A stretch of DNA of 64,000 nt from Perkinsus olseni. Its lineage: Eukaryota. A program made the position numbers and the translations under genes. The stretch lies in assembly GCA_013115125.1 (NCBI GenBank), contig JABANN010000079.1:1-64000 (forward strand). Reading direction: 5' to 3'. The notes beneath the pieces were generated by a model, which worked only from the letters and a program-made list of their open reading frames with translations, was not told where the DNA came from and searched no databases. Positions 349 through 64,000 of the stretch are shown here, in pieces (the first letter of the stretch is position 1; each line of letters starts with the position of its first letter).

Positions 349-3300
349 CGAGTATCCAAAGCATTTGCCTGTAAAAATCAGGATCTTCCGACTCCATATC
401 GTGCCATGATACCTACGCACAAAAAACTGCATGAAATCGTGAGCGGAGCGAAGTGCCTCTCTCACCGGCTTGCCAAGCATATGCTTGTAGAAGCTCCTCG
501 TGAAGTAGCAGTCCAGCCTCTGGTTGTCGTAGATGGCCTTCCCGATGAATCGACCGCAGAACTCGAAAAATGCAAGATGATCCGGATTAGCATAGGACAT
601 GCTGTTCGGATGGAAAGTCGAGCAGTTACCACCTGAAATAAGCAGAAAACAGCTCCTACCGGGGATCGAACCTGCGAGGTATTTTCAAGAGCCTCCAACA
701 GATGCACACCGGCTTTCTCAGCATCAGCAGAATTACTGCCGATGCAATCGGACATAAGTCTTCGAATTATTGCTCCGAAAGCAGGACACTAGGACTTGAA
801 CACTCTCGCCAGCCAAGCATCGACGTCCGCTCGCCCAGCCCTCCTTACCAGCTGTACTGAAGAGTGCGTAATTGGGATTGAATATCTCCCTCGATAGGAT
901 GCCGAACCATTCTCTGACGACGCCTCCAGCATCAACAGCCTCCTCGCCAGAGAACACTATCGACAGCTTGCCGCGCATCTGATAAAAAATATCTTTTTCC
1001 ACCAGAAATTTCACAAAAAAATGCAGGAAATGTCACCCAGTCCTCTTCTACCTCCTCGGCTGTGCGCGGCCGTAGCTGATGGAAGCTGTCCATGAACACA
1101 TGGTCCCTTCGGATGTTCAGTCTGATGGGCCGCATCCCCACCCGTGGACCTGCACAACACAACTCCGACTACCCAACCATCCCTTGCCAATACCCCTCAC
1201 CCCGATTATTCATCTCCCAGTGGAAGAAGGCACGCTTGTTGTCAAAGTCAACTACATGAGGGGCGATACCTGCCCAGCACACAGCAGCCTCGTCTACGGT
1301 CCTCCCGACCTCCCAGCACTTACGGATGATGCTCATGAGCATCCGAGTAAGACTGTCTGTGGGGCGTTTGATACAGGCATTGACGGGCTTCTTGTGTCTC
1401 TCAAGGAAGGACACTAATTTTCTCATGTCCCGGCCGTAAGGCGATAGAGCGCCATCATCCGACATAGCCGATAATGATACACTGCTGGTGCTTCCTGACA
1501 CAACGGCGGCAAAAATCTATAGCGTTAAGCTCGCCAATACCAACTTTTTCGCAAATTCCAGAGTGTAAACGCTATCCTTACTCGCCGTTGCTCGGCTACT
1601 CGTCGGTAAGGCCGAGGAATCTCCCATTGGAGTGGACGCATCAGCCTCGCTACTCGAAGACGACGACGACGCTACGGAATAATGCCTCTGGCTGCCATTT
1701 TGAGAATCTACAAACGCATAGTCCAAATCGATCACCGGGGCGAGCGCTGCTGCTGCTGCTACCTCCTCTCTGACTGCCGAAAGCAACCATGAAGGCCTCC
1801 AGAAGGCCCATGATTCGATGCAGCCTTGTCGGTATTCGACGATTGGCGCCGTCCTCCGGGCCTTGGGCTTCTTCCTCCTCCTCAGGTGCTGGGGCCTCCT
1901 CTAAGGGAGTTCTGACACAGGCAGGCACATGTGATATCCCTAGACACGAAAGTGGCCGTATAATCGACAATAACAAATCGAAGCGTATCTTTCATTGTGC
2001 CAATGACACTAATCAACCTCTATGCTGCCGGCCAATCTCACCGTTCCTCATCCCCTTCCACCACACTCGAGGTCGACGATGATGGCGCAACTGCGCTCCC
2101 GGCGGCCTCCCGGGCCCTCAACTCCTCCAGCTGCCTCTGACCCTCAGTCTGGCGGATATCAATCTCGTCATAAGGCAAGAGGGCCTCGTCCAGGGCCTCC
2201 CACAGATCCATCAGACCAGGATTCGAGGTCGAGCCGGAAAGATACCTACCTCACGGAACCGTCACTGCGCCACGAAATTCCCTCGAACTTACTCAGCTAG
2301 AGTATTCCGATAGGCTGTATCGAACTCGTCCTCCGGCAAGTCGCGGCACTTGTTCCGGGCAACCTGCTTGTACGCCCCGACGAAGCGCATAAGCCTCTGC
2401 CCCGCCCGCAGCAATCTCTCGTTAGCCTCCTGAGTAAACGACACTTGGTACCACCTATTAATTACATGGGAGTTACGTTTGGAGCGGTAGGCGGAACGAC
2501 ACGAAGCTCATCCCTTCGAGAGGGCCTTTCTCACCTCAGAGTCTGTCGGTTCCTTCAACATTCCAACGATACCTTCGGCAAGTCGGCCAAGTTCCTCCGC
2601 CAGGGCCGCTCTGAGCTGGCGGCCGTGGGAATCTGATAGATCGAGATTTGGCCGGGGCCGCATCATCATCACAGTGACACTCACCGCTCTCGGCAAGAGC
2701 GACCACTAGAGCGATGCCTTTATGAAGCACTCGTTCCATTGCGAAGGGGTTCACCTGTTGATACATAGAAAATGTCAGGCGTGGGAATCGAACCCGGGAC
2801 CTTACCAAGCTGATATCCCCACTAATCTCGTAGCGAGGATCCATTCTCCCGGCGTGCGTTCGACGCTGTAAAAGATCACCCGAAGCCGGGCCAAAGACGT
2901 ACTCCATCAGCCTCTTGGCAGCGTCCGCCGATATATGCTGCATCAGCACACGCGAACGCTGGAGGGACTTCTCAGCCTGAGGTATCGGGTTCGATCCCCA
3001 GCGAAGGCATTTTTTCCTACCCTTTGTCTTTGCTTTGCCGCCAGTTGTTCTGCAGACTGGACCGCTCCAGTAGACGACCTCGGAGCAGCATCAGGCGACC
3101 TCGAGGACTCCTCGGGCGTCACAGCAACTAACAACAGTAGTGGACACACCCCCTCCCCCTTAGCTCCCTACCTGGTTTCGGTCGGTGTGGTACGATTAAC
3201 TTCGACAAGAGCAGTATGAGGTTGCCGAACGTAACCGCAGAGGCATCCAAAAGCGGTGACGAGATGATGTCCATGAGCACCTCTATCCCTGTTGGGGCCT

Positions 3301-6300
3301 TGCCTGCCGCCACCGAGGCTGAGTGGACCTAGACAGCGCGGTCCTCCGACCAATCAAGACAGCCGGGCACCCACGGGATGAATCAGCCACTCCCTCGAGC
3401 TTGGCACCCAGGTGAGGATGAACTCCACTGCCACCAACAACCGTGACGCCATCGTAGCCCGTACCTTGGCGGGGTCGTCGCCACTGGGGACCTGCAGGAA
3501 GCTGAGCAGCAGCTGATGGACATGATCGTTACCTCTAGCTTAGCGAAGGGAGGGGTATCAGGCTCGCCCAGCAATCTCGTGCACGGCATCTCCATCTCCG
3601 GGCGATTCTCATCTGTTCAGACAAGTCCTGTGAACTCTACAGCACTCTGCGGAAGTTCCAACCACATGCCGTACTAACGCCTGAACCGACCCTCCGCGAG
3701 ACATATCACAAAGCGCGCGTACAATCAATAGTAGTAGCGCGTTCTACGACAGTGACCAGAAGTAGAACCCCGAATACCAGGCCCTCACTCGACTACCGCC
3801 GGCCCACCTATCCGCACACTATCCGCCCCTTGAAGCAGTTCCAGCAGCATCCTCATGGCCGCGGTGTAGAGCCGCAGCCTCAGGGCTCTATGCAAGCACA
3901 GATGGTGCCTGACCAACGCCATGGACGGCATTCTGACGCGAGGCAAGCTTACGTTATTTCGTCCAACTTCGCCTTCAACCCCGGCAGCAGATAGCGCATC
4001 CACAGCAGGCGCAGTAGTGCATCAACAAATTCCAACGGCATCGGCGAGGGTACTTCGAATTGGTCACAAAGATGACACCTAAACCGCACAGCCTGGACTG
4101 CCAAGCGTCGGTCACCCGCCACCAGCTCACTTCCTGTCGCTGATCGCCGTATGCTCCTCCCGAGCTCCTCCACGTTCCCTAGACGATCCCATCTGGACTC
4201 CTCCCCAGGACAGAGGTCCTCCAGCGGACGCTGCCAGCTCAGAGCCACGACCCGGTGGCAGAGAGGCGTCCATCAGCCGGCTCCCATCGACCCAATGCCG
4301 GCCTCCGCCCGTGGCCTCGGAGCGCTGGAGGACGTCGAAGAGTAGATTTACCAAGGCCCTGCTGTGGCCCGTGCCACCCCCAGAAGCAGCGGGACCACCT
4401 CGGTTGGCGAAGTGTGAGGTGAGATCAAGTAGATCTGCGACGTCCCCTGCTGGTAATGTGAGCATCTGCCCCGGTTCCGCCCCAGGGCCAGCAGCAGTAC
4501 CAACATCGGCGCCTTGCCACCCGCTCCCGAGACGTATGCGTATCCTATTAGGATCCGGCGCCGCCCGGGCACCCGACTGGGGAGGGGCGCCACCGCCGCG
4601 ACGAGCACCACCACCTGACCAGACTTTTACTTAGGCATCAAGTCACTAACCGCCACAGATTGTTTCTTTCTCGATTTTCCAGAAAATTTTGGGTTTTTTT
4701 TCTCAAATTTTTTGGGTAAAAATGTGTCCGCCTAGTTCTTTGCCAAAGAGCTGGCGTGCTCGCAAGGGCGACGGAGGCCACAGACCGTCGGTGCCGATCG
4801 CGATGAGGAGGAAGTGCCTACCTCTTCCCGCAGCCGCTCCAAGTCCGGCGAAGCGCATAGCTCCTGCTCGGTCTCGTAATGCCCTAGCCTCGGCCCGAAC
4901 CTCCGCGGGTAAGGTCTCCAAGAATTGAGGCGCTGCAGTCATGAGTATCTCCTCCCTCAGCTGCGGGTCTGTCAGCGTAGCTAAGAACGTCGCATTGTCC
5001 ATACCCTAAGGCAGTGCAGCCCTCTAACCAATCACCAAACCCAGCCGGCGGCCCCTACCTCTTCTAGCGCAGGCTCTCCTGCCTCCTCCTCCTCCTGCTG
5101 TTGCTGTTGCTGCTCCCCTTCAGGAGCCCTGCTGGTGCGGCCAGCTACACTCGAATGCTGCTGCTGCTGGTGCTGCAGCCTTCTCAGCGTGGCGTTGTCG
5201 ATCTGTGCCACATGTTCCCGTATAATGTCTTCATGCATGTCCTGTGGTAGGGCCTCCAACACCGAGGCGTCGATACCCGTAGCATCCAGTAAGGCTGACG
5301 GGGCGACATTCAATCGGGCCGCTGCCGCAGTCAGGGCCGGTATCTCTACCGCTGGTGGAAGGTCAACCTCCCCAGCTTCTTCTCCGCCTTCCGCTTCCGC
5401 CTGCTGCTGCTGGTCGTCGCTAGGCTCTGCTTCGGCAGCTGCCTCCTCGGTCTCCATCGGAACAGCAGTATCCCCTCCCACCACAGCCCCCTCCTCAGGA
5501 CTGGCGGCCTGCTCTGCGACTTCTTCGTCACCACCACCAACCTCATCAGCCTCATCCATGATCACCTCCTCCGTAGAACCCTCCTCCTCCTCCCGAGGTT
5601 CCTCTGTCGCCGTTGTTGTCGTCGTGACGGCAGGCGGGGCGACTTCCTCGCTGGTCATGTGCTCCACTGCATCCGGCACGCCCTGCACAGTATCGTCTAT
5701 GTCAGGTTGGGCAGGGGGCAGCACGCCCGGATGACCGGTTCGAGACGACCCTCCAGCAGGGGGCGGCTGGAGCTGCCCGACGCTGGTGCCGGTGTGCGAG
5801 CGGGCTATGAGAGGATGCTCTCCCGGAGCCTGGACGTCGAAAGACCACAGAGGTTCGATCCCATCAAACGACATCCTCCTATTTCTCCGCAACCTCTGAT
5901 TGTTATTGTGGCTCATCTCCCTCACAGCCGAGTCGAAAATACTAAAGACTCGCCGGGAATTCCCTCCGCCGCTGCTGCCTGCCGGGCCTCCCCCTGGGAC
6001 CCCTGCGGAGACCCACCGGACTTCTCTACCACCGCCCATAACTCCCCGCATGCTCCTAGGCCCTCCTCTGAGGTGTCTAGGCTGGAGCAAGTTCACTTCC
6101 TCCTCATCGTCGTCATCACTACCACCGATGTGGAAGAAGGAATCTGAGAAGAGGACTCTACCCCAAGGCACCCGGTATCATCAGGCTCACCGTCCTCAAC
6201 CTCATCACCACCCATCATGTCAGCTAAGGCATCCTCAAAGTCCATATCCTAACACAGACACACTGCCGCTCCCACCACCGCATAAAACTGCTACAATCAC

Positions 6301-9300
6301 AACTACTACTACTATTCAGTCAGTAGGCATCCATCGGAGGACGTGCCCGCCTCGAATAACAGTGAACTTATGTCAGTGCGCTCAGTTCATAGCGGCCTCA
6401 TGAGCGCGCTTCCATACACCATCACTATTACTACCCCTATTTCGTCTAAGTCCACGTCGGGCATGTCGTCAAGAGTATTGTCCTCAGCCATGAACTCAGC
6501 CGCCTCGAAGAGTTCCTCGTCCTCCTCATCCTCATCATCGCCACTAGGCTGTTCTGATGACTCTATCCCCGCCATAGCAGCATCCTCGCCACTCGAGCTA
6601 TCATCAGTGGGCAAACCATCACCTAGCACCACGTTACTCCAAGGGCAGCCACTGGGCCGTACCCTACCTTCCCGCGGGGCAGCAGCAGCAGCAGCAGCAG
6701 CCGTCAGTGGCGCCACGTCCATGGCATCATCCACGCTCGATCGATCAGCCTCCTCCTCATCGAGCTGGCTGTCGGATCCGGCGCCCGGGCCCCCATCAGG
6801 CTCGTCACCATCATCAACCTCCTCTACGATTTCAACATGGATCTCCTGCGGCTGCTCCTGCTGCGCATCCGACGCCACAGCCGCACCGCCATCCCGTATA
6901 ATTTCGTGGCGCGGTGACGATTGACCGGAAGAGTCTCCAACAGAATCAGCCCGGGCAACATCACTCGACCGCCTTCCTCTTGGCAAAACATTGGCGCTCT
7001 CAGGGAACTCAGGGCATCTCGTCAGCGGAACCAGCGGCTCCAACATACTCTAACAAAAGTGCCAAAAGCTACAGCGGAGCGAAGCACACCGACGCCCACT
7101 ACCTCTGCCACGAAAGGGCTATACGGTTGGTCCAACTGCAGGGAGCTGAGGGCGTCTCCCAGCCAGACCTTGGCCTCCCGGACCCTCTCCGTCTGATAGG
7201 CCGCGACGTCGGATGCGCCCGGGAGCTGGGGACGCCCGTCCAAGACGAAGTGCTCTTCACCGTCCTGCCCTCTGCACTTCGTCAGTTGCATGCTATATCT
7301 AAAAATACGCAAACAATCCACGAAAAACAGGCGGAGCGAAGCGGATATTCCTACATCAAGTAAGCCCGAGCCATGAGCCTCGCCGCCTCTGCCGCACCCT
7401 CCGAAGGGACCGTACCATCCCCCTCGCCACTCGGCTTCAGTGGATGCTGTCTCTGTGGAATGCTAGCATCAACCTTGGGTACGTCCTTCTCCCCGACGCC
7501 CTCGAAGGCATCCGACAGGCTCTGGGCAGCAACAACAGTTCGACAGGGCAATTACTCCTAAGGCGTCCCTACCTTCCACAGCACGTCCGAGATCTGCCGA
7601 ACAACCTCTTCAGTGCGGCCAGAGTTCAGGACAGCAACGAAGAGCCACTCCTGGGCCAATGCCCCTGCCCACAGACTGGCTTGGCTGTGAGCAGCGTGAT
7701 CTCCTACTACCGCGGAGAGAGCGCAAAGGCCACCACCTACACCGACGATCACTCTCATCGCCCATCACCGTCAATTCTGTCCGCAACGAGACGCCTATGA
7801 GGTCCCACCTATGAAGTCCAGGAGGCAGCTGCCGGTGTTCTGAGCCATCCACGTGAAGCAGTCAGTGTCCATCCAGGGTTGTCGACCCTCCCCTTCCAAG
7901 AACCTCTCTGGTATCGCCGGGTCGAACATCAGTTCGGGCAGGACGTGCTTCACCTCCAGCGTTTGACATAATTTCTGAGAACAAGCAAGCTCGTAAGATT
8001 CCTGCTACACGCACGCGCAAGAATCTTCACTTCAACCCAAACAGTGAGTGTAGCAGAAGATACCCTCACGTCCCCAGAAGGCCGACAGAGAAATTCCCGC
8101 GCGCCACAAAACCCTACACTGAGGAGGAAGAGCATCTGCTCAGCTCCATTGGCCAGTTTCGCTTCGCCGGACGCAGCGTAGGCGATCTCCTCATTGGCTT
8201 GGTAATGCGCAGCACTCGTCGTCATCGCTGGACCAATACCACGTCCAACCATGCAAACGCCTAACATCACCGTCACGCGCCACGAAAATAGTTCACCGGT
8301 ACTTACGAAGTGCCACTAGGATAGTCGACACTGTCTTTGCCAAGTTGTGTGGAGTGACCATCTTCGGTGGTTCCGAAGATGTCTCGCTCATGGGGCGGTC
8401 ACCCTAACGGAAGGACGCGTAAGGGGAGACCTCAAGCCAGGCACAGTACGTTAGTTCTCCGATCAGTCCTCACCAAGGCTTCGGCCTCTTCGACCACCTC
8501 GTCGCGAAGCGCGATCCATCCGTCATCTGACAATGTCCCCGGTTCGATCCCCGCACCATGCATTTCTCCTACTAAAATGACAGTATTTGGTGTACTTCCT
8601 CAAAGCCTTCTTTATGATACTGCCAACATCGCGGCCAATGCAGGTCGGAGCCAGCTTCTCGGCCATGGCCTCTACGATATCTCTCGTCTTGGCCCAGGGC
8701 CGACCATCGGATACTCGAACATAATCGTTATGAGTAGCAAGATACCGCAGAACAATAGGTTTCGCCTCGGCCTAATAGAAGCGCATCTTCTAATTCTTTG
8801 CTGTGCGTAACGCTGGTCCTACCTCCACAATGTAGTCGTCGTCTCGGCAAATGTTCAGCATCACCGTTTTGAGGTGGGCCAACATACCAGGGTAACTGAA
8901 AACCACCGTAAAACGCCGAAAAAAAGGAAAAAACCCGGCGAGAAGTTCTCCAAAATCAGAAAATTCCCCCGAAAAGTCCCCAAAAATCCGAAAATTCCGT
9001 CAAAAAGTTCCCGAAAATTAGAGAATTCTACAGAAAAGTGCCCAAAATTACGAAAATTCTGCTGAAAAGTTGCCAAAAAATAACTTAAGACTGACAGAGG
9101 CTCCGTAAAGCCAGCAGATCCATCATGGTACACTGAACTCGTAAGATTCTTCCATCTTCAACTTCAGTCCCCCTACCTTGAGATTTGGGGCAAGGTGAGC
9201 AACAACCACAGCCCTCCACTGTTAAGGACCTCTGTGGCACACTCATAGTATCTTGTCGTCTCCGCCAAGCACATGAGGAGGGCCTGGCTCTGCATAGGGT

Positions 9301-12300
9301 CCATCAACGGCTTCCTCTCAGCAACTCTGACCAAGGCCTTGGTCAATGACAGCATGGTATCACGGCCATTGGGCAGTCCAACCAGGCAACCTGACCGCAC
9401 AGGCGAGGTTCCACATTACACGGCATGGCGCATTCCATTCGCAGTTCTCCGAAGGCATAGACTTTGCAACCTTTGCGGGTTTTATGCTTTGAGTACCTTC
9501 CGGCGTATCTTAGGTAGGTTTCCCATTAGGCGTACCTTCGTCCCGAGATTCACAATCGCACAGGAGCCCTACGTACCATGAGAGGACTAAGTTCATTGAC
9601 AATATCTCGTTTTTTATGCAAAATTCTCATTTCGTTCAGTACAAGCGGGCATCCTAGCATACATCTCGACTAATTCTGAGCAATCTTGGACCCACCACAG
9701 CGATTTTCGTGCTCTCCATGCTATCCTCAACCCACTACTACCCAGCCATTTGTGGACGCACACCAGCACCGTCGAGAGCCACTTAGGAGGCATCCGTGCC
9801 TTATCTTCCTCCGACAGTGGCAAGTTGGCCAGCTCCTCCCCCACAGAGGAAGGCGACGACTCTCCAACCACCGCGCCGTTGGCGTCACGCTTCCGTAAAG
9901 GCTTGGCGAAGGGGGCAATCTGGGAAGGAACAGCTCAACCATCACTGAGGAACGCCAATCCACCGACCTTCACACCGCCTACGACCGTCACCCTAGGATC
10001 GACCTGCGCCTCGTCGGAGCCGCCTCCACTGGCCACCAATTCGACAAGCCTCTGGGCGAAGCTCGGGCCCATCTCTGTTATCTCATTGGACACCACTGCT
10101 GCGTTGGCATGGGTAAGGCAGCATAAAACGTGAGCAGCAATTCCTGAGCCGGGAATATCCTAGGTTAAAGCGTGGAACAAACATGAATAAAGATACTCCC
10201 AATTGTAACAAGTCACCAGTAGCCAACTTACTGGTCAGCCTTTCGGAAGCATCCTCGGCCACTACTGCCTCCAGACAAACTCTCGCTATATGACGACAAT
10301 TCAACCGTGCCAAGTCATTACTCCCTGCTCCATCACCCTCAACTGCTGGACCTGAAACGAAGCGTCACGCGCCACGAAATTCCCCCGCCCTACCTAGCCT
10401 AATCAGCTTGTTTCCAGTCAGCCTAACGCACACATCCGCTATGTGAGTCTGTGCGCTGATGGACTGCGTCCGCCCCTTCTCTCCCAGGACCAACGCCCGC
10501 CTCATCACGTCGCTGGCCACGTCCTTGCTGCAGGCAATAACTTCCTCTTTATCTAAGGAGAAATGCATCCACCAGGAATCGAACCCGGGTCGAAAACTCA
10601 CCCTCATAAGCCTTCCAATCACTCCCACTTGCGCTGAAGTGCTCCAAGTCCAGTATGAATTCATCCGCTCTCCTAACATCTTCTTCCTCTACAGGATTGC
10701 TTTCACTGCCCTCATCAGCACTCTCCTCCATGCCATCTTCGGGAGGGTCACCACAACTTCTTGCCGGCGGCGACTCGGAAGACCCAACCTCGCTCAGGGG
10801 AGGCAGAACAACCGGGGGCCGCCGAGCTGAAGGTTGATGGGGCGTCGACATCGGTGCTGAGAACAGAAAGAAATCTCAACAATTATGCCGGGTGAACGGC
10901 GGTTTTACCGTGAGTGAAAAGGTCCGACTGCGCAGAATTCACGAGACTATGAGCAGAATCGGAAATAAGGAAACATGCGACTACGCGGAGAGGTTGCAAA
11001 AAGCAACTGCAGGGTGTGGAGTTCGAACCCGCGACCTAGGCTACCCGTCAGCTCACCTCGGCCGTCGTCAGAAGCGCCTTGCCCGCGACCTGTTGGAGCC
11101 TCGGGGGAGCTCGGCCTGCTACTAGAGCGGAGGAGGGATCGATCGGGCTCCAGAACATGAGTCAAGGCCTTCAATAGTGATGCTGCCGCCTTCGCTGGGA
11201 TGCACTCTATGACCTGGTGGAGCGTTGAGGAAACGCAAGATTGCAAGTGACCTCTCACCGTATCATCCCTCCATTTTGAGACGAATGACGATGCAAACGT
11301 GTACTGCAAAGACGATACCAACCCAACCGTATCTGCCGCAAACCTTCACCGCGCCACGAAATTCAACCCCAGCACATACTGAAGTCAAGCAACGGCTTCA
11401 TCTTCTCCTTCTGGTCTTCTCTAACGTAAGGCCCCAAGGACTGGTGAGCTCTACTCAGCTCCGTCGTGATGGCGGCATTGTGCAACCGCTTCACGCTGGT
11501 GGTCCGCTCGAACCACCAAAGGACATGTTGTACTGCTTCCGACAGGACGTTCAACGAGGAAGTGAAGGGAGTAGCCTCACCCTCTGCGCCTGATAGACCG
11601 CAGGTTCGATCCCCGAGACATGCATTTCTAACAAACGGTCGTATCATCCCTTCCCCTAGGTTATCACCTGAGGGCTCATCACCGAGCCGCTGCAGCATGT
11701 CCAACGCTAGCAGGAGAATCTCCATGAGCAGGTCAGCTCCGTGTAGTTTATAAAAAGCATCGAGGCATAGAGACCGTATCATATGATGACGATCTTCTAC
11801 ATGGACCTTACCTGAACCAACGGGAGTAATGCACCCGGGTTCAATCCTACCACCCGACACTTACACAAGAGCTCCACTACGTCGGCCATAAGGTGAATGT
11901 TATGATGAGATCCACTGGGGTCCATGGTTATGCTGTCGTCTAAATCGGGATACTGAGGAGACAAAGGAGTGGTATGAACTCGCTAGCATGCATAATATAG
12001 AAAGAAACCACACGGGGAACTGCAAGTTTCATCAACTCAATATGAATATTCCTACCTAGGTCACCATGACAGTTACCACACGGTATTCCAGTGGAAGCAG
12101 TAGAGCACCTCGCTACTAACCGACAGGTCTCGCGTTCAATCCCCATGCCCCCCGCCCTATCACGACAACACCCTACTGTCGACAGGGCCTTCTGCAGCAT
12201 CTTTCTCCCCATAACCGCCAACAGCAGCGCGCAATGCCTCGACTGGACCGATACCGTCACTCTGGTCACAGTACCTGTTAACATGACCGTGCCAACACTG

Positions 12301-15300
12301 ACACGGCAGCGGCATACACTACCCTGACTCTCTGAAGCAGCACGAGGCTGGCCGCGACTGCGACTGAGGGTTCGGTGGGGATAGTTGACAACTCGGCTGA
12401 TCTGACATGATGGAAATAAAGACGATGGTTGAGTAGAGCAGGAGATGCCTTACTTGAGAGAGCAGCACGCGTGCTGACAACCAGCAGGTCAAGGCAACAT
12501 CCATGGATATGTCATAGTCTGGTGAGGCCTGACAAGTATCCTAGCTTCACTCATGCCTCATACACTGTAGCAAGATATAGAGGGTTTCGGAACTCCGCGA
12601 AAAACTACAAAAATTTCTGATTCTCTACGCGAAATCCGTTCAAGGTGAGATTCGAAGTAGCTAGACCAAGAACACGAGTAAGCCTTCGCCAGAATCCACT
12701 GCAGCTCCTCGGACCCAAGAGTTCGCCGCACGCTCAGCGAACCACTGACTTTGTCGTCTCCGATGATGACAAGGTAAATTTGACCCTGCTGAGGGTGGCG
12801 GGAGCCTATCTCAGGCTCCCTCCCCACTCACCCGAATTTCAGCCCAAGTTTCCCGAGCTAATGGCGCGGTGTGGTTGAGAAGCAATCAAAACTTCTCACC
12901 GAAACGGACTCTGGTGGCCAAGGTGAAGGCATGCGTTCGCTAGCTCGAGGGTGTTCAGGTGAGCCCCAGGTATGTATAAGGGGACTAACGAGTGGCTCCA
13001 CGTGATCAACCGGCGAGATCAAATATCCCTGGTGAAATTCAGTTACACACAGGTCATCCGACTTCCGACGGACCTCGAGCTCTCAATAGCGGCACTCGCC
13101 GACTGGAAACGTCATCTTCGGAGTGTTTATTCCGGGATACTCGCCATATCACCGAAAATTAGGCTCGGCGTTGAGGAATTGTAAGAGTTCAAGATCGACC
13201 AAGGAGGCTCTAAACACCCTTCACTACCAATCGATCCTTCATCTCTCGCATACAAACGTTGAATTGATAATTGAACTGATCCGGAGCATGCGGGCCGCCC
13301 TGAGGGAGGACATCCTCCAGAAATGCTACAACTACGACCACAACCTACTGGTGGTAGAGCGAGCCTCGACCGATGAGCCGACAATTCAGCTGCTAGACTC
13401 GCCATGTGCCGCTGCTGGAGGTTGGCTAAAAAGAAAAACCACGTCACTTTCCGCTCCATTCAACCGGCAAGGTGAGCTGATCTGAATCATCCCAGCTTCA
13501 ACCTAAGATTCGCGACGCACGCCCGTTATTACTGGCAGCCGTTTTGACTGCAGTCCGGTCCTTTTCTCGCTGTAACTCCCTCTCGCTTCGCTCCGCCGGA
13601 GACAATTTTGAATTAACAGCATACTGAAGTGGGATTCATCAAAGCACTCCTACGCTCACTCAGTGTACTTACCAAGAGATCTGTGAGAAAGTTGGTATCC
13701 ACGATCATCACCCTCAGAAGCTCCGCGAAGCATTCAACTGAAAAGTAACACCGATGCCTGCTGTCTCCATGGCCGCTCATCCACAACTTTCAATTATGCA
13801 ACTTTTGCCCATACCACTCCATCCCCAACGAGTTCCATAATATATCTCTACCCGGCGTGATGCTAACTCACTCATACGCCCATCCTAGTACCAGTATCCT
13901 CATGCAAGCTAGAGCTGCTGTCCTTCAAGGCCGTGGCCAACAGCGACATGAGCGTACCAACTTTATGCCACTTCTTCTCCTGCAACATATCCTCATCTCG
14001 GAGTATCCTAATCGAAGCATCCACAAAGGCTTGGGGCCACTTGTATCTAACAGTACTGTTCAAAGAGGTCGCCGACAGGACAGGCAGTGATGCTACAGTT
14101 TGTAGCCTCGGACCGACAAGAGCTCTGACTCGCTAGAAGGGTCCTCGCTGTAGAATTGGGTATGACGAGCATGATGCTGATGATTGAAGTGAGCTACTTG
14201 CTTCACCAAAGTTAGTATCTGGCAAGCCAGCAAAGGTACCAATCATATTCTGATAGAAATACTGCAAAATCGCCTCCTAGTAGCAACTCTCGAACCAGCC
14301 AAGGTAGTGCAGAGCCCATATACCCGAGACCATAATAACATCATCATCCCGGATCCCCAGACCATTTCTCACCGGATGTCCGTAAGTCATGTGACCCCAA
14401 CAGACTGGGAGTTTATCACTAATCGCGGCCTCCGCTACTTTCTCCATACCACCCGACTCAACGAAGAGGCAGGAGCTGTCCAGACCATCAAGGACCCTGT
14501 CCACGATGAACCTGTCGAGGCCACGCGTAGAGCCTCCCCTCCCAGGCCCATCCTTTGTAGCTCACCGGCAAGCATTGGCGAACTCGTCTATGTAAGTGTT
14601 ATGCACAAAGTCGATGTAAACCGGTTCGCCTTGGTAGTTTCTAGGCCCTACTGGCTCTGAGTTGACCATCTCCTCCGCTACTGATCGTAGCGTACCATCA
14701 CTCCATGTCCGAGCAACATCTGCAACAAAACCAGTTAGTAAGATCATCGCGCGGACTCATAGAGCTCTTCAGACGCACATTTTCCAGTCGATAATAGCAT
14801 CTTGACGGCTCTGACTAAGCCAGCCAAGTTAACAACAAACGTACTATTGAATACCTCTCTAGCCCCAACAGGATCATCATGAGGCTGCACCACTCAGTAA
14901 CGCTCCGGCAGCACAGTATCATTATGAAACATCTATCGAACAGTAATCCCTAAGAAACATTCCGAACGGTTCTGTTGTAGACGGGCTTCGAATCATGATA
15001 ATATGAAGAACCCGGAAACGAATAACTTTCTCTATCGGATGGCGTCCGCGACAAACGCTCTCTCGTCGCACTTCTTATGCGAGTAACGCAAATCATAGTT
15101 TCTTCTTCATAATCGGTGAAATACTTTTCCGGCGATAACCACAAGTCCACATAATCTACCCAGAAATCTCCAAGCGAAATTATGCCAGGCAAATTCCCCG
15201 ACAGGATTGCCCAACCACCAACGGCAATAGCACCAGAAAGGAACGATGCACTCGAAAATTCACCCTGGTTCCAATGCTGCGCCCTCGTCTCACCTTCGTT

Positions 15301-21100: not shown

Positions 21101-22289
21101 CGGGAATGTCGCCGTCTTGCAGGAGGGTTCCTCGCTGATGGGCTCATTGATAGCGTTAGAACCATCCGTTCAATTCAGAGTTCTCTCAGCGGTAGACTAC
21201 CCCTCTTACATCACTCCCAAACTTGAATTCTCAGATGCTTGGAAGTTGGCACTGGCTCTGGTGACTGGATTCTTTCTCGAGCCAAGAGAGATTGGTCGCA
21301 GCAATGGGTTGCCTCGGAGTTCAAGTTTGACAGGTAGTCGCCATTTCAAGGAGCCGAGTAAACATTTTTACGAGTGTTAACAGAGGCGCTGAGATTTGCG
21401 CTCGGCAGTCACCGACTAGCGCTATGCCCTGTGTCAGATGTGCGTCGATTCGGCAGAAGTGCTTACTAGAGGGACCTAGAAACGTGCACATAATCGGAGG
21501 GGACGCCCGAGAGTGTCTGCCAATGTACGATTCTCGCGCGCCACGAAATTAGTTCGACAAGTGCTGGAGTTGATTCAGGCTCCTGCCGTCCAGCTGCGTC
21601 TCGGAGGTACACATTAACTTCCCAGAGCCACCTGTATGGCATGATGCCTGTGCCAGGGAAGGTGAGTATATGCTCATTGCGGAGCACTTAAATTCTTGCT
21701 ATCTTGCCATTTCCTAACGCTTCGAGAACTGGCCAATCAGGTACTGGAGGAGATCATCTGCTCACTTGCGATTTCTTCGAAATTCTTCACGGATTATGCC
21801 GTGGATCGTGCGTGTTAAGGGTTGTCTCTGATAATGAGCAGTACCTCACCACTGTACGGTCGGAGATAGGGAAGCTTTTGGGTGAGCTTGCTGGGGCAGA
21901 GGCACTCCCAATCATCGGGATGCAACTACCTCATCCGAGGTCGCTATGATAACCTTTTGTCTGTTGAGGATTACGAGTCGCGGTTTTCGTGTTTGCTGTC
22001 GAATCTCTACCTCGCATTCGCTATCGCACTCTCGTTTTCGCTGGATTTGCGCGCCATTGTAGACATCCGCTGTTGAGGTCGTTCTCATCTCTTTCCATGG
22101 CGAGGCGTGTCCGCTTCTACTTTTTCTCGGCACAGCCGACCGGTTTCTCAGCTTTCCGATACCTCGGTGCGTGTATGTTTATCAGGCCTGTGGGACTCGG
22201 TGGAGCTGAGAGAGCTCACAGCTGATGATGAGTCGGAACCATCTTCCTACTTCGATCGGATGTGGAAGCGGGGGCATCGATCTTCCAGG
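18151..22289 (+). CDS. PPR-TGM protein: pentatricopeptide repeats plus a C-terminal TrmB-like tRNA (guanine-N7) methyltransferase; multi-exon, both ends approximate
   Basis: PPR exons: KKAGGRPDKHTYANIINTCVRCDNITKAEE, VPMTTMLKGYASEGMRSKAQGLLGEM, AFLRGCLRHGWYEAAVSAYEKA. Methyltransferase exons: CLEVGTGSGDWILSRAKRDWSQQWVASEFKFDR (21235-21332), NVHIIGGDARECL, VSEVHINFPEPPVW, HLLTCDFF, VVSDNEQY, SSYFDRMWKRG. Confidence 0.8.
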
Positions 22290-25768: not shown

Positions 25769-28653
25769 ATGCCACCGCCACCAGCCGAGAAGAAGTCTAC
25801 GCTCAGCCTCACAAGGGAGCGGCTACTAGCGAAATTCGGGAAGTCCAAAGAAAGCGTCATCGGTAGGCGTAGAACCAATGTCGTTGAGAAATCTCAAGAT
25901 CATTCAAGATTTTCTAGAGTGCATAGCCACTGTTTGAGGCTGCGGTTTGCTCATACGGACGCACAAGGGTCTACTCGTCGCTCCTAAGCTGTTGATTGAT
26001 CGAAGGGTTCCTCTCCGGACGTGCTGAGCACTCTTCGGGAGACTTGTCACCATGACGGGAGGCGGGAGAATTGAAATGACAATGTCATGGTTATTGGGGG
26101 GACCTGTATGTCAGACCCCGTTCTTAAGTCTTACAACGGCAGAGCGATCGACCTGACCGAGTATCGTAAAGTGAGCCCACCTCACGCTACTTCAACATAG
26201 CAGCAATGGCAATATCTTCAGATAGAAAACTTGGTGGCCAACACCATAAGGGATGCTCGAAGGAAGGGCGGCAGAAATGCAATCGAGGATGCCACTGCAG
26301 CTGCTAGTAGGGCTGAATGCCTAGATTTATGTATGAAGTTTGCCATTTTGCAGGGGCAGCAGTGTCGGACGTGAGTTCTCGTAACGATCCTCGGCTGAAG
26401 CCAGTAGTGGAGCTTCCAAAGCAGCGTCCATTCCACCTTCAGAAAATGCAGGTGAGCGGCAGCGGCGGCGACGCGATGCGATGCGGCTCAGTCCGCGTAG
26501 CCATGCTCCTTTCCTTTCTGACGTTACATCATGTAACGCCGGAAAGGAAAGGTAACTTACACGGATCAACCCTTCTTCTCTGATGTTGCCATCCAGGCGG
26601 CCAGTGCTGGCAAGACCATGAACGCAGCAGGGCAGTACGACCTCATCGTCCAATACGACTCCTACATGCATGCAGTGGAGGAGAAGGACCGATTGCAGAG
26701 CGAGAAGCAGAAGAAAGAAGTAGGCAGATGGGCGCTTTCGGTCATGCATCTATCGGGTCCAGTCTGTCTAGGCTAACATCGATATTTCTTTATGTTGTTT
26801 CCACTGCTCTCTGGTGACGCAGGGCACACTCTTCGCATTTGGCGCGACTGTTACACAGCCCAAGAACACGCACGGCCTTTCATCTGCTCTCAGGAGTACA
26901 GGAAGGCCCTTGACAGTCAAATGATGGCGAAACGTGCGGGCATGGCAAATGAAGCGCAGAAGAGAGAGGAGGAGAGGCTTGCTATGGTAGCTAAGTGATT
27001 TAGTGGCGCGCGACCAAATTGTTTTCAGTTGGGAGCGAAAGAGGAATTCAAGCGAGACAGTGAAAGACGGGCCACGAGGATGAAACAGAAGAAACTAGCT
27101 ATGATACAGGAAGCTGATGAGGTGCAGCTTGGGGGCATTTGATACCGTAACATTGGGAAATCAGGCTCAACGATCAATACAGCGGAGGCGAAGAAGGGAA
27201 ATGGCGGAGCGTGAAGCAGAACGACAGGAAAGTTTGCAGAGAGTGAGTGAGGCTGGTGGTCCGGGCATGATCCTCAAGAGACGAGCTCGGACATGTGAAC
27301 GGCACCGCTGCGAGTGTGATGGTGTTTTGCTGTCAAAATTTGCTGGTGTCATTTGCTGAGTGGCCGCCCCCGCTCCACTGAGCCCTCGCTAGAAGCCTTA
27401 TCTCGGGGGTCCTTGGGAGCTTGAAACCAACCCGTCCGGAGAGGGTCATGAATTTTCCGCAAACAGATGCAACGAGAGACAGCAGAGGCGGCGATGGAGG
27501 AGAGGAAAAGAAAGGCGGCGAATGATAAAAGGCTGAACGAGATCAACGAAAACATCAAAGGTGAACTCCGTCGCGCGCCACGAAATACCCGTGTTTGATA
27601 GATGCAATAGAGAGGAAGCGAAGGGCTCGACAAGAAGAGGCGGAGCTGGCGGAGATTCTAGCGAAGCAGCAGGCAGGAACACAACCTCACTCTCCTACTA
27701 GGGGCTCCCATCTCGCCCTTCCGCAGATAGCGGCGGCAGAGGCGAACGAGAAAGCCAAAGCTGATGCGCTTGAACGATTAAGCAACCGAATCAAGCAGAT
27801 TGCTCAGACTATCGGGAAGAGCGTCGGCGATGAGAACAAGGTAGGCCATGAGTTGTTCGGCTTTGAGCTTGGAGCTCCGCCATTTCCACCGCAAGTTTTA
27901 TCGGTCAGAGACGGGAAGAGGAGGAAGATCGCCGATTACAGGCTCATCTGCACGCCGCTGAGCTCGCCTCTCGGAAGGTGGGTGGTCGGTATGTGAACCA
28001 GAAACTGTATTGTGCATTCTGTCAGGCTGAGGCGGATAAACGCGCTCGCCAGGAGAAAGCAAAGAGAGATATGCTGGACATGCTCTCACAGCAGGTGGAG
28101 TCGTGAATTCGTCCGTGGTGCGCTATCCGTACGCGACAGGTGCAAGAGAAAATGCAGCTGAGGAGGTTCGAGGATACTGTGAACAAACGGCAGGTTAGAA
28201 TATACCACACTTCGCAGACATCATGGTCGCTCTCAAGGGAGAAGAATACCGCAAGATGGCAATCGCTGCGTTAGAAGATGAGGTGGAGGAACACCGTCAA
28301 AGACGACGTAGGAGAGCCGATATGGACAAAGAACTCGTAGGCGCCCATCGAGATACGAGCTGCTAGCGGATAGCATCTGTCATCAGGAGAAGCAAATCTG
28401 CTTCACTAATTTGACAACAGAAGAAGACAGGATGGAGGTTGACCTGCAGCGACGGGAGCTCGAACTGAACCAACCCCTCTTTCGGTGCTCCCTGGCGAAT
28501 CTTCACTTGCCTCAGCCGCTATTGAGCCATCATCATCTCAGACGTCCAGTGTCGATAATCTCACGTGCCGTTTTCAGGCGAATGGCTGCCCAGCGCTATA
28601 AAGAAAAGGAGTGTGCAAAGCTCCTCTTGTCGCAAAAAGCTGACTCGACATGA
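25769..28653 (+). CDS. Long E/K/R-rich coiled-coil protein (trichoplein/TPH-like, possibly flagellar); multi-exon
   Basis: Starts MPPPPAEKKSTLSLTRERLLAKFG. Internal exons YDLIVQYDSYMHAVEEKDRLQSEKQKK, EYRKALDSQMMAKR, IERKRRARQEEAELAEILAKQQ. Ends RMAAQRYKEKECAKLLLSQKADST*. Confidence 0.7.
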
Positions 28654-50400: not shown

Positions 50401-53034
50401 AAATATTGAGATCATGAAGCTGCTGCTGGAGAACGGAGCCGACCCCAACAGATCAGAGTAGGTTCGGCAAAAGATGGTACTGGCATCCTTCAGCAGGCCG
50501 ACTACTTTCACTGCTCTCTATGCCGCCATCAACAAGGGACAGAATGAGGCTGTTAAGCTGTTGCTGGAGTGGCAGGCAGATCCCAACCAAGTCGTCGGCA
50601 ACGTGGACCCGGCCAAGCGCTCCTTCGGTGACCTAGCTGGGCTCTGTTCATTCCTGTCTGTGATTACACGCAGAAGCAGCAGTATGATAATGGTTCGTGT
50701 TTCGTCAGGGACATCACCATTGGCGGCGGCTATCAAGAAGGGCTCATCGGAGTTGGTAGATCTACTACTGGATACCGGAGATGTCGCCCTAAGTAGTAGT
50801 TCATAATGATCCAGCTGAGCCTCCTACAATGCCCCTTCGTGTCCCTTTTCATCTGGGACGAGGTGTGTCTTAGCGGCCGAGGAGTTCAAGACCGCCTTCG
50901 AAAAGAAGTCCAAACCTTCTATTAAGCGGCTAATGAAAGCCCTATCGCCGGATTTCCCAGCAAGATACCAGGTAGGAATCTTCGCTGTGCGCGCCTTGAT
51001 GGCCGTTTCCCACCCCAGGCTATATGGGAGCTACGCAGCTCCAATGGAGAATCCTTGATTCAACACTTCGCTCGGAAGGGAGATGTTAAGATACTCGAGA
51101 TGGCCAATGAGTATCAGACGGTTTTGCTGCCTTCTTCCATCGTTGCACGCATGCTCATGGGACGCACCGGTCGTCGCCAGGTTCAACGCTAACTTTGGGG
51201 AGAGATTCGCCTCTGTATTGGGAGGCGCTCCTCTTGATATCCAGGTTGAAGAGGCGGAGGCTGGTGCTGGCTCTGCCGTAAGGGGTGGCTGCTTGTGGCA
51301 CGGGGCCCGGCTCCTGACGTCTCTCAAATATCTCGTTCCCGCTGCTGGGACATGTGAATGGATTTGGGGGGATCTGAGCTTGAAATAGTGTAGAAAGCGT
51401 CCTTTTCTGAATATGAAGTATGAGAGGGTAGGTTGATCCTCATTGTGTTATCAGCTGAGCATAGCGGCATTGGCCGGTAAAGACAAGGCTGTGACCTGGC
51501 TCATAGAGAAGGCGAAGGTCCCTGTTAGATGGGAGTCTCTGGTAAGCAGCTCCCAACCTGACCATTCCCAGGAGCTCTTCCCCGCAGGCAAAAATACTCA
51601 TACAGTTGTGTAGAGTGAAGATCAAGATCGTCCCAGTCGTCCAGGTGAGACTTCCGCGTATTCACCGCTCTAAGAAAGAGCATTACTGACCTCATCCGTT
51701 GTTGGCTCCCGGTTTGATACTTCAGATACTCATACCAATTTATGAACGCCTCGCACCGGATTTTGATGAGGCCAACGCATCGGACGACGAAGAGCTTGTT
51801 ACCATAACCGATTTATTCGCGGAGGCGGTGAAGGCACCGAATTATCAACTGGTTAAGTAATGATGCATCGTTGGTCCTCCTCGGTGACGGGTTGGGGTCT
51901 TCAGGTACTTACTTGACGACCATAAAAGAGGGATAAATCTCAAGTAAGAGGACCAGGCTGTGTTTGAGTCTGATGAGCGTTTGGGTGAACTCATGTGTCA
52001 CAAAGGCGGCGGAGCGAAGCACGTCTATGGGGCCATTTTAGAAGCTGCGAGCTGCAATGTCTTGCTCCTCGTCTTCTTTCGAATAGCCCATCTCATCAGG
52101 CGCTTACTGGAAAGCTATGGTCCGACTATTATGTTCCGCAGTGATAGTGTGACGAGCTTATCCAACTCGCTGGGTGCAATCGAAGGCGTTGCTCTCGAGG
52201 GAGGGCTCGTTGTGGAAGCTGTCAAAACTAAGGATGCCAAGGTCAGAGCGACGAGGGGCGGCACTTGTTAGTACATGGGAGCGTTGGCTCTGCGGGTCTG
52301 AGGATTGTCATGCTAGTCTTCGAATGTTGAGATTTGCAGTGCAGATGTGGTTGTTTTTCTCGCATTGGTAGGTTGTAAAGCTGCTGGTGGAATTCCTTAA
52401 TGGCGGTATGATAAAGCTCAATGAGGAGGACCAAGATACGTGGAACCTTACACAAGCGATTGGGCTGGCACAGGAGCAAGGGGCCACCGAAACGTCGGAA
52501 TGTAACCGAGGCCGAAGGCATTCCGCTTCATCCACCTCACACCGGCCGTTTTTCACAGTGCTTACGATCGGCAGGCCCTGTTTCTGGGATCGCTATGGTG
52601 CGGGCGCTATCCAATTTTCTCCGCAATAACGATGCGCATAGCGAGTGGACGTTGGTGCTTGTCACTCAGGGCTGGCTTCTCACCTGCCCCGGCCAAAAGA
52701 GGATAAGTCCGGTACATCCTTCTTCACGAATGAATCCAATAAGAAAAGTAGTATCCTCGAGTGCCCACCATCCGACGTCGTTGTTCATCGGGCCGAGCGT
52801 AGATCCGTCAGTTGTCGATCTTGTTCAGATTATGGCGGCCGCAGAAGCTCGAAGGCTCCTCCGAGTAGTAGTGGCTGGAGAGAGCTTCACATCTTTTATC
52901 TTACCGGACTCTCCTTTTTCCTTTATCTGTCAGGCACTAAGCGGTCCTCTCTGATATCCCAGTTCAAGTCTACTGGGAAAGAGTTCGCCACATCATCGGC
53001 TAGGGGATCTGCATTGTTCAGTAACAATCAGTGA
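47488..53034 (+). CDS. Ankyrin-repeat protein, possibly the C-terminal part of the upstream channel; multi-exon
   Basis: Ankyrin exons: ALCVAAREGNLRI, DCVDEDGLRPLFHAI, HARIVTALLVAGADAD, YSLVHYASESGQEKLLYSLLLKRADP, LLEHGADPIATNTLGQTALDIA, YAAERGNIEIMKLLLENGADPN, TALYAAINKGQNEAVKLLLEWQADPN, TSPLAAAIKKGSSELVDLLLDTG. Probable stop at 53034. Confidence 0.8.
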
Positions 53035-60377: not shown

Positions 60378-60696
60378 AAGGGACAGTTGTATCGGTGAGA
60401 GTATCGCCAGCTATCATTATTAAATGATTACCACTAGTAGTAGGAATATCCAAACCCCTATCATCGTAAACAACGTGCAGTACTCATCTCAGTGAAGCGG
60501 TGAACCCCTCCTTGATTACAGTACTGCCAGCCTTGTCCGGTTACAGGTCACTCGGCTGCTTACATAATGCGACGCTCACAGCTGGTAACATGCGCTGAGA
60601 AGTAGCGAATTTCGTGGCGCGTGACATGTTTCATCGCTCATCGTCGTCGCCATGCCATGCCATCAAGGTTGATGTTAGTGGTTTTCACTGATAAAT

Positions 60697-61951: not shown

Positions 61952-62488
61952 TGTGTGTCATGAGTTTCTGAGTCGATACGTCTTTCGTGTTCAAGGGCTT
62001 GCCAATTCGGAAATATCTTTGGGTCTTCGTCGTGAGTATCGGAAGTATGCTTTTCCTCAGTACACTTCGGCATCCCTAGTGGTTGCTACTTTCACTGGTC
62101 TCCCCGTCCCTTGGAGCCTTTGTCAAGTGGCCTTGGGATCCCTCCACTGCTGTTGGTACTACCACTCATCCAACTATTCGTCTGAGAGCATCTCGTTGCT
62201 ACAATCCGTGCCACTTCTTCCCCCGTGTCAAACCCGAACAAGCGTAGACGCACAGTGAAGGCAGTCACAACCGCAACCACCATTAAAGAAGACCAGAGCA
62301 ACAAGGAACCTACAAATCTGAGAGCTACTACACGAGACAGGTAGTAACGGCGGTAATAGGAATAGGAGATGATGATGATGGTCCGAGGTTCGATCCCCAG
62401 GCCTTGCGTTTTTTCTGTTGCGTATATGCGATTCTCTGGGTACTGTGGATTGGGGGATTCTTTTGTTCTTCCCAGTGCACCGGTGGCG

Positions 62489-64000
62489 ATGCTGCATGGC
62501 CAATCATTAGCGAATACGCCGCCAAGTGGGTGTCATCGTCAGCCGGGCTTTTCGGAGGACAGTGGTAATATTTCTCATCGATTTGCACGATCACCACCAC
62601 TGCACGATCGTGTCCACGCACGACCACCTCAACAGGAGCATTGTGCCTTTTCGTCCGAAAATTCCAGTCGGAGCCATCTGGCGTGGTGCACTTTGGCACT
62701 TTCTCGTCACCTCGACCCTCTCAGATGATGATTCTTGCTCCTACGACTGCGGCTGGATTGCGTGGTACTGCAGCTTGAAGGTAGTCCGTCACCACGATGG
62801 CTGATCCCAGGGTGTCTTCCTGTCATAGGGCCATGAGATGTTCTCAGAGGTCGACGAGGACTACATTCGAGATGCTTTCAATCTCTACGGCCTCCGCGCC
62901 AAAGTCCAGGTCAGCAGCAGGAGCCATTGTCTTCGGGTTAGTACTGAGTGTTCTCATCAGTTCTATGACCATGCATTGGAAATGATACTCAGCGACGAGC
63001 GGCCAGATGAAGAGGACCTGGCGGACAACGTGAGTTCACGATTGAAAACAGAGGTGGGGTTTTTGTTGTAGTTGACGAGCATCGTCTTAGGATTTTCTGG
63101 AGATTTACCGGGAGGCTGTTGACTTGTACGGTCTCATACATGCACGATATTGTCTAACTCCGAGGGGATTGTCCGTAGTGAAAGAGAAGTACCTGAGAGG
63201 TAGGGCAGGCGGAGCGATGCAGCCGCTGATGAGTCTGAGAGCCTTCATCAGGGGACTACGGCACTTGTCCGCGAGTCTATTGCAACGGCCAGCATGTACT
63301 GCCAACGGGAAGGGTGGGAGAGGAGCTCAGGGTTGAGCCTGTGAAAGTAATGCAATTTCGTGGCGCGCGGTAGTCCTCCTTCTCTATACCGTGCTGCTTC
63401 AGTTGTACTGTCCCAAATGCGAGCAACTGTACGTCCCTCGGCAGAAGCATGCTCACCTTGATGGTGCCTACTTCGGCGCGTCCCTTCCTAGCTTGTTCTT
63501 CCAGGTGAGCTCGACACTCATCATCACTCCCGCGCAGGAATGCGTCCGTTATTGTTTCTCGCGTGCCCTAGGAGTAGGGGTCATGCTTTCCTCCAATAAG
63601 TTTTCGCCGCTCTTCTCAACCTTGATGTGTTCTACTCAGACCTTCCCTAAGTTGATACCAGCGGAAGTTCCTGTGTATTTCGAACCTCGTGTGTTCGGGT
63701 TCAAGGTTCATAACAGACCGTACGTGATGCGCCATCATCATCAGTCCACCGACGTAGTGGAAAGGATGCCGTTCGTCTCAGATCTGTCGTGCTAAAAAAG
63801 CTACAGAACGACGTTGCCAAGGGAGCCTCATATATAGACTTTCATGGCTGCAGCAACGCCGCTGGTAGGACCACGGATGGGTTACTGATGATCAATCGTG
63901 GCGGCAAGAGCTATGATACCAACCGTTGCAGAACTTGTCACGTTGGCTGCGAGTGTGCCCATCTGTCTCACAGGCCCTTACCCCTTCCCGATAGACCCCT
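62489..64000 (+). CDS. CSNK2B: Casein kinase II regulatory beta subunit; start approximate, runs off the right edge
   Basis: [72 protein letters not shown]. Confidence 0.95.

Follow-up and report, generated by a model that had tools for sequence, protein, structure and literature searches.

A dispersed 13-base motif tied to the shortest introns of a 64-kb stretch of the Perkinsus olseni genome

The subject of this study is a short motif, GCGCCACGAAATT, that recurs along 64,000 nucleotides (nt) of the alveolate Perkinsus olseni (contig JABANN010000079.1, positions 1 to 64,000; this whole stretch is called the window, and all figures given below come from it). The motif is tied to minimal introns: eight of its ten good copies lie in 41-56-nt introns of four unrelated genes, the remaining two being one coding copy and one copy upstream of a gene. 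An earlier note on this DNA had recognized the dispersed motif and its mostly intronic position in unrelated genes, both of which are borne out, but it missed that the motif is tied to the shortest introns, that the family is old and that two sister families exist. These points, together with the conservation of the core, are what is new here. As an explanation we tentatively favor an anciently dispersed element with a core that would be read on duplex DNA.

Results

The motif and its copies

Nine matches to GCGCCACGAAATT at <=1 mismatch were found on the two strands of the window. Dinucleotide shuffles gave a mean of 0.11 and a largest count of 2, and none of 100 shuffles reached nine, confirming that the near-exact copies reported previously are real. 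Seven copies were exact (2267+, 6900-, 10369+, 11351+, 21538+, 60608- and 63354-); in the two copies with one mismatch (8277+ and 27575+) the change fell within the last two positions. In an unbiased k-mer scan GCGCCACGAAATT was the top non-simple repeated word of the window. The positions listed in the earlier note hold, except that some coordinates were off by one base because a preceding C had been counted. The two variants that it placed at about 8098 and about 26998 (reverse complement) also exist, at 8092-8111 (nhmmer E = 0.14) and 26997-27014 (E = 1e-4); the latter, designated copy H, brings the number of good copies to ten, and the former is a degraded eleventh. Apart from this weak copy at 8092, the profile search added short partial matches in introns, e.g. 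at 18244 in a confirmed intron, and when two to three errors were allowed, matches to the 13-mer in the window were no more frequent than background.

The 13-mer is preceded by a 5' extension, which makes a unit of 18-19 nt. This extension had been described as GTCAC or GTCGC; it is real but looser, taking the forms GTCAC, GTCGC, CTCGC, TTCACC or ACCGC, with a one-base insertion in three of the ten copies. Two sub-types can be told apart. GTCAC-GCGCC comprises all five HUWE1-like copies (one with TTCAC) and the copy at 60608, while TCGC-GCGCC comprises copies E, F and H, with copy G (CCGC) near it. A weak likeness a few bases past the unit was read from alignments of subsets of copies. Elsewhere in the organism, contigs of the runs X7 and X8 contain two motif copies that are 21-22 unrelated bases apart, with intervening sequence unlike that of the window; this gives a period of about one motif intron. 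The sub-types, the weak extra likeness, the degraded copies and this double copy suggest common descent by copying.

In public metagenomes the 18-mer was matched once at each of 28 loci, representing about 17 distinct and mostly GC-rich, bacterial-looking contexts; none had further copies or likeness to the window, and they were taken as chance level. No publication was found that contained sub-strings of the motif in a relevant context, only unrelated primers or oligonucleotides, and peptides encoded by the motif were absent from the four Perkinsus proteins searched.

Association with the shortest introns

Introns were predicted with a codon and splice-site model trained on 15 confirmed introns, and the motif was not used in the predictions. 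The model errs at the 3' end of one gene and builds one chain per strand, and short introns were counted only in strand-assigned regions. Predicted introns of <=65 nt numbered 68 and covered 3363 of 64000 nt, or 5.3% of the window. Seven of the nine copies at <=1 mismatch lay within them (P = 3.6e-8), as did eight of ten when variant H was included (P = 2.4e-9), so that eight of the 68 predicted short introns carry the motif. One of these eight introns (E) was confirmed by RNA, five (A, B, C, D and G) were supported by protein colinearity, and two (H and F) by frame logic. Copy E resides in the shortest of the 14 RNA-confirmed introns of its gene (54 nt; the others are 79-300 nt). For comparison, P. 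marinus introns are given as 39-1622 bp, mostly <100 bp (PMC3101222).

Motif introns had a mean length of 46.9 nt, and the remaining 60 predicted short introns one of 49.8 nt. Motif introns are thus no longer than other short introns, and the element is therefore not an add-on to a pre-existing intron. It begins 7-17 nt past the 5' splice site and stops 11-31 nt short of the 3' splice site, occupying the intron interior that other mini-introns have free.

Both orientations relative to the transcripts were found, as the earlier note had stated. In six introns (A, D, B, C, G and H) the transcript reads AATTTCGTGGCGC, while two introns (E and F) carry the motif in reverse, as does the exon copy. 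The core matched at 12-13 of 13 positions in both groups, save for variant H (11/13). No RNA fold was shared among the eight intron RNAs, whose z scores ranged from -2.5 to +1.4 with differing structures.

Age and constraint of the core

The orthologue of intron B could be read through a peptide. P0021, a 77-residue open reading frame (ORF) of a P. marinus-type contig, ends in ...NKLIRLG-KGLV-ISWRVT-IPFR-PCSRGGR. Its first part is the exon preceding intron B, and the frame then reads on through the orthologous intron, where ISWRVT is the exact translation of ATT TCG TGG CGC GTG ACn, the core of the motif. The tail corresponds to the next exon in a shifted frame, at the place where the annotated P. 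marinus protein has PVPEEAD. The exon and the frame-shifted tail together fix the orthologous intron at 43 nt, compared with 42 nt here, and P0022, another gene model of P. marinus, is compatible with this intron layout. Between the two orthologues the core differed at none of 13 determinable bases, and the flanks at 5 of 12 plus a one-base length change (Fisher one-sided p = 0.012); the bases in these counts were read through the peptide, assuming the TCN (serine) and CGN (arginine) codon families. A comparison of orthologous introns had been proposed in the earlier note, and at intron B it thus revealed the motif in the P. marinus-type contig with its core unchanged.

The second copy open to comparison is the coding one. 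Its SPRHE peptide is kept in P. marinus at the aligned place (...SSGNLSPRHENMEE...; …GNLSPRHENMEE…), in a variable stretch where the neighboring residues differ. The core kept in the orthologous intron, together with the retained SPRHE, argues that the family is old and constrained. Both testable copies, two of the eleven, therefore predate the split between P. olseni and P. marinus, and the core has evolved more slowly than its flanks at one orthologous intron, with the coding copy being consistent. The suggestion that the copies are the footprint of a recent ultra-short insertion does not agree with this age of two out of two testable copies.

Copies in the HUWE1-like gene

The first 15.5 kb of the window are one minus-strand HUWE1-like gene with Pfam matches to HECT and UBM, along which the P. 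chesapeaki and P. marinus orthologues map. A ubiquitin-ligase fragment of P. olseni matches the window at 137 of 141 residues (~97%). RNA-type contigs from four public runs, belonging to four studies, were aligned to positions 2001-22000; the introns of the HUWE1-like gene were established by protein alignment and gene model, outside the RNA-contig joints displayed.

Copy A (2261..2279, plus strand) consists of GTCACT and the exact 13-mer and lies in a 47-nt intron, 2246-2292, being read as AATTTCGTGGCGC in the transcript. The intron comes from the gene model, and the P. marinus protein P0018 is colinear and unbroken across it (...NTLAE/YLTGS..., the slash marking the junction). Copy D (8272..8289, plus strand; GTCAC and a 13-mer ending in AAAAT) is located in a 46-nt intron, 8261-8306, where P0018 is continuous as ...LLVALR/VCMMGRG... 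and the tblastn pieces split at 8305/8270. The degraded copy (8092..8111, plus strand) comes right after the 5' splice site of the next intron, the length of which is uncertain (7975-8117 in the model). Copy B (10364..10381, plus strand; GTCAC and the exact 13-mer) belongs to a 42-nt intron, 10352-10393. Exactly there, the alignment of the P. olseni fragment P0020 has a gap of 14 residues, and P0018 is again colinear. Copy C (11345..11363, plus strand; TTCACC and the exact 13-mer) was found in a 47-nt intron, 11333-11379, and the tblastn alignment of P0015, a P. chesapeaki protein, splits at 11378/11333.

The coding copy (6900..6918, minus strand; GTCACC and the exact 13-mer) is sense to the mRNA and encodes SPRHEI. 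RNA-type contigs of X11 and X15 span 6711-7049 unbroken and with 0 differing letters, and because of this cover (pieces were listed for two runs) the copy is considered exonic, in agreement with the coding stretch (SPRHEII) described previously. This region belongs to HUWE1-like exons (5032-7049, minus strand) with long runs of Q, A, E and S arising from CAG/GCA-type trinucleotide repeats.

In another HUWE1-like exon, an additional C follows position 11233 in the contigs of each of the four runs, at 72 of 122.8 depth in X7 and at full depth in the other three. This base may belong to an allele or reflect a single-base error in either the window or the contigs; the frame of the window is open and aligns to the P. 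chesapeaki protein. Beyond the gene, at 16009-16656, both strands have ORFs of a 7-residue peptide repeat (…CYTRLG… / …ITAQPC…), which implies a tandem DNA repeat of about 21 nt.

Copies in other genes

Three more genes carry intron copies: one on the plus strand at 17.6-22 kb, which has 14 RNA-confirmed introns, a coiled-coil gene starting at about 26.9 kb, and casein kinase II beta. Copy E (21533..21550, plus strand; CTCGC and the exact 13-mer) lies in the 54-nt intron 21525-21578 of the first of these, with the transcript reading GCGCCACGAAATT, i.e. in the opposite orientation. The joint 21524->21579, with GT..AG borders, was present in contigs of all four runs from the four studies.

In the plus-strand coiled-coil gene, variant H (26997..27014, minus strand) is composed of GTCGC and GCGCCACTAAATC, with two mismatches in the 13-mer, and falls in the predicted 42-nt first intron, 26987-27028. 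The spliced frame is open (...EERLAM/LGAKEE...) and the retained intron gives a stop. Copy F (27570..27587, plus strand; GTCGC and a 13-mer ending in AAATA), opposite to H, falls in a predicted 41-nt intron, 27561-27601, for which the spliced frame is likewise open (...NENIK/DAIERK...) and retention gives stops; frame logic is the evidence for both introns. The distance between H and F is 533 nt, and pairing by hand gives complementarity at 16 of 18 bases. In the casein kinase II beta gene, on the plus strand, copy G (63354..63371, minus strand; ACCGC and the exact 13-mer) occupies a 56-nt intron, 63347-63402, and is read as AATTTCGTGGCGC; the spliced junction ...RVEPVK/LYCPKCEQLY is colinear with the CK_II_beta family.

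The copy at 60608..60625 (minus strand) lies between the starts of a HAD-like gene (minus strand) and an HCCS-like gene (plus strand), about 75-90 nt 5' of the HCCS-like ATG. This position between divergent starts, as given in the earlier note, is supported on the HCCS-like side by a weak Pfam match just below the cut-off (22.5 vs 23.8 bits). On the HAD-like side there was no Pfam match, only a DWDDT-type stretch in the ORF.

Elsewhere in the window, a phospholipase-B-like ORF shows 83% identity with one protein of P. marinus and 69% with one of P. chesapeaki. Two tandem paralogous genes on the minus strand (29038-30519 and 32254-33751) share long near-identical protein stretches; neither has the motif, and no Pfam match was obtained for them.

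Sister families

Two further words behave like GCGCCACGAAATT. The first, GCGGAGCGAAGC, had nine copies at <=1 mismatch where 0.37 were expected in the window (443-454, 7074-7085, 7331-7342, 13585-13596, 20110-20121, 35966-35977, 50315-50326, 52009-52020 and 63209-63220). Two of them fill protein-validated HUWE1-like introns of 53 and 56 nt, and the others lie in predicted introns, adjoin a splice site, or are exonic.

The second, AGGTTCGATCCCC (family m3), contains a T-loop or B-box-like word and had six copies in the window against 0.10 expected. Counting variants, eight B-box-like sites were recorded (661-673, 2783-2795, 2987-2999, 8540-8552, 10576-10584, 11602-11614, 49817-49825 and 62386-62398), and at these a T-run begins 12-13 nt past the nine-letter GTTCGAnnC (13-14 past the T-loop), which is the layout of the 3' end of a tRNA gene. 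Copies of this family occur in short introns in both orientations, and the tail of AGGTTCGATCCCC acts as a pyrimidine tract in one orientation and as a GTAGGA-type 5' splice site in the other. Since the two sister families behave alike, the GCGCCACGAAATT motif is one example of a more general tendency in this genome. Together the three families are found in 15 of the 68 predicted shortest introns, or about one in five.

Discussion

Comparison with known systems

Introners, known from Micromonas, Aureococcus, dinoflagellates, fungi and Amoebophrya (PMC7789003), resemble the present family in that one repeat is found in spliceosomal introns of many unrelated genes, here four, from which it is removed by splicing. 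Insertion in either orientation is also known for some introner families (PMC7789003, PMC9860276). In contrast to introners, the similarity in P. olseni extends over only about 18-24 nt and falls short of the exon-intron boundaries, as judged from the alignment and profile of ten copies, and introns of 41-56 nt are far shorter. Comparison of intron ends with the neighboring exon ends in the eight introns gave no evidence of target-site duplications (permutation p = 0.21 and 0.74); copy C looked suggestive and was judged to be chance. No second, inverted copy that could represent a terminal inverted repeat was seen within any motif intron. Nor was intron B, one of the eight, recently gained, as the 43-nt intron of the P. 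marinus-type contig has the motif at the same site and phase. The family therefore lacks three of four introner features, namely end-to-end similarity, target duplications and recent gain, and the earlier statement that this is no conventional transposon or introner, with flanks that are essentially unrelated, is upheld. The survey of PMC9860276 scores P. olseni, P. marinus and P. chesapeaki as 'ie = 0' (Supplementary Table 4), and Perkinsus goes unmentioned in its main text and in that of PMC12130899. In the literature searched, no publication was found that links Perkinsus with such a motif or with introner-like elements of this kind, and searches on Perkinsus repeats and promoter motifs turned up nothing of relevance.

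Two features of the family are those of a DNA-binding site. Copies are preserved independently of orientation (six and two introns, plus the exon and upstream copies), and at one site, read through the peptide, the core changed more slowly than the flanks (p = 0.012). ETC (extra-TFIIIC) and CTCF-type sites are long, conserved, orientation-independent words scattered through genes, with a core better kept than its surroundings. They are like the present motif in both respects, and m3 has a B-box-like T-loop word; unlike the motif, for which the factor is putative, they are not known to be confined to the shortest introns. The upstream motif of the C. elegans 21U-RNAs (piRNAs) has thousands of copies in introns and between genes, in both orientations, and drives a small RNA about 40 nt downstream. 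It too is a short conserved word with unrelated flanks, but the introns described here are too short for such a unit.

The m3 family is similar to tRNA-derived short interspersed elements or tRNA fragments, having the T-loop word followed after 13 nt by a T-run as at the 3' end of a tRNA gene. Part of the GCGCCACGAAATT motif presumably recalls a tRNA D-arm or A box; this and other presumed resemblances of the motif, to E2F, SCB/MCB and Abf1 sites, the tRNA A box, and the 7SL, U4, U5 and U6 RNAs, were not relied on. A fragment of a tRNA-derived or RNA polymerase III (Pol III) gene was considered as the identity of the motif and rejected. ARAGORN detected 0 tRNA genes in the window, and Rfam gave no match at any motif copy, including tRNA and the signal recognition particle, whether the gathering threshold was applied or E values up to 10 were allowed. 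No unit of A box and B box at gene-like spacing was present, and no motif copy lay upstream of the B-box-like words.

Possible explanations

The explanation that we favor, while holding it somewhat less likely than not, is an anciently dispersed element whose core would be read on duplex DNA. Elements of about 18-24 bp, with the core GCGCCACGAAATT after GTCRC, would form the interior of ultra-short (41-56 nt) spliceosomal introns in Perkinsus. They were probably dispersed long ago by copying and insertion in either orientation, after which purifying selection would have held the 13-base core while the rest of the intron drifted. A sequence-specific factor would recognize the duplex inside gene bodies, and candidate roles for this putative factor are chromatin or architecture, passage of the polymerase over tiny introns, and replication. 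The core is equally well kept on either transcribed strand and no fold is shared, so that recognition of duplex DNA would be the simplest mechanism. The DNA-level binding site proposed in the earlier note is compatible with the data and is indirectly supported by a core that stays conserved between species when its flanks do not, and by equal preservation in both orientations; the part that is not supported is a generic genome-wide spread, because eight of ten copies lie in the ~5% of the window made up of predicted introns of <=65 nt and not in the far larger non-coding rest.

Several points weigh against this explanation. The evidence across species consists of one intron read through a peptide and one coding copy, for which constraint on the protein is a confounder. 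These conserved copies are a forward intron copy and an exon copy, so an RNA-level reading stays if the reverse intron copies are young. The set of short introns is our own prediction, and all figures stem from one 64-kb window. A pure DNA site gives no obvious reason for the tie to the shortest introns. Finally, we infer both the binding of a factor to the duplex and the origin by insertion, and in the case of insertion target-site duplications are absent.

The main rival is a splicing signal at the level of RNA, in which AAUUUCGUGGCGC followed by GUGAC in the transcript would serve as intronic enhancer and branch point for introns of 42-47 nt, with the reverse copies being non-functional strays. 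It would agree with the majority orientation of six of the eight intron copies, and the GTGAC/GTGAA extension of the four HUWE1-like intron copies is 11-15 nt away from the 3' splice site, where a branch point could plausibly be; moreover, the conserved intron B is in the majority orientation and its peptide is compatible with GTGAC. We nevertheless regard it as unlikely, and it can stand only if the reverse copies prove to be young. Orientation relative to the transcript is not fixed, two of the eight intron copies being opposite, and the cores of these reverse introns, one of which is RNA-confirmed, are equally intact (13/13 and 12/13). In addition, G is without the GTGAC extension and H has GCGAC, and the 13-mer is unlike any testable splice signal, with neither an Rfam match nor a shared fold. 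A different use of RNA would be a paired system, in which opposite copies in one pre-mRNA, or a spliced intron and the mRNA, form duplexes of about 16-18 bp that steer splicing or feed a small-RNA pathway. The opposite orientation, 533-nt spacing and 16/18 complementarity of H and F within one gene fit such pairing, as does the complementarity of the four HUWE1-like intron copies to their gene's own exon copy, but the gene at 17.6-22 kb and that for casein kinase II beta have one copy apiece within the window, and pairing of this sort seems to us highly unlikely.

Alternatively, the copies might be neutral relics, functionless for the host, of a mobile element that generates introns, whether an introner or captured fragments of small RNAs or tRNA-like sequences. 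The core would then be alike because the copies are young. Whole mini-introns filled in unrelated genes, in both orientations and with stray exon and intergenic copies, would be expected of such relics, and the sub-types, the degraded copies, the double copy 21-22 nt apart in the X7/X8 contig and the likeness of the sister family m3 to copied tRNA-gene 3' ends point the same way. Opposed to this are the orthologous P. marinus-type intron, which already has the motif and in which the flanks have diverged but the core has not, and the coding copy common to both species; target-site duplications are lacking, the similarity stops short of the intron ends, and the three Perkinsus genomes are introner-negative in Supplementary Table 4 of PMC9860276. 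We consider neutral relics quite unlikely, if less so than RNA pairing. Very improbable in our judgment is a generic promoter or chromatin site with an incidental location in introns. Independence of orientation and the copy between divergent gene starts would suit it, but it is at odds with the share of copies in 41-56-nt introns (eight of ten, when predicted short introns make up ~5% of the window) and with the presence of copy E in the single shortest of 14 RNA-confirmed introns. A k-mer introduced by assembly polishing or error correction, as considered in the earlier note, is refuted: nothing was found in its favor, contigs of the four runs from four studies agree with the window at the covered copies, the intron 21525-21578 is spliced, and the orthologous site in an independent contig of another species encodes the motif.

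Significance

Should the association be confirmed across the genome, the same conserved 18-base word would be present in roughly one out of every eight of the shortest introns in a notifiable parasite of shellfish. The motif would then provide a sequence handle on a putative factor acting inside genes, as well as a test case for the retention of minimal introns. It would also expose a blind spot of introner surveys, which need end-to-end similarity of introns and scored Perkinsus negative. Comparing forward and reverse copies across species would separate a function at the level of DNA from one at the level of RNA. In a further reading, which is unlikely on the present evidence, a class of minimal introns may be kept in Perkinsus to carry conserved duplex-DNA signals inside gene bodies, with the three families as separate signals; in an alveolate, intron architecture would then be connected, in a way not described before, with factors that bind DNA (architectural or Pol III-related).

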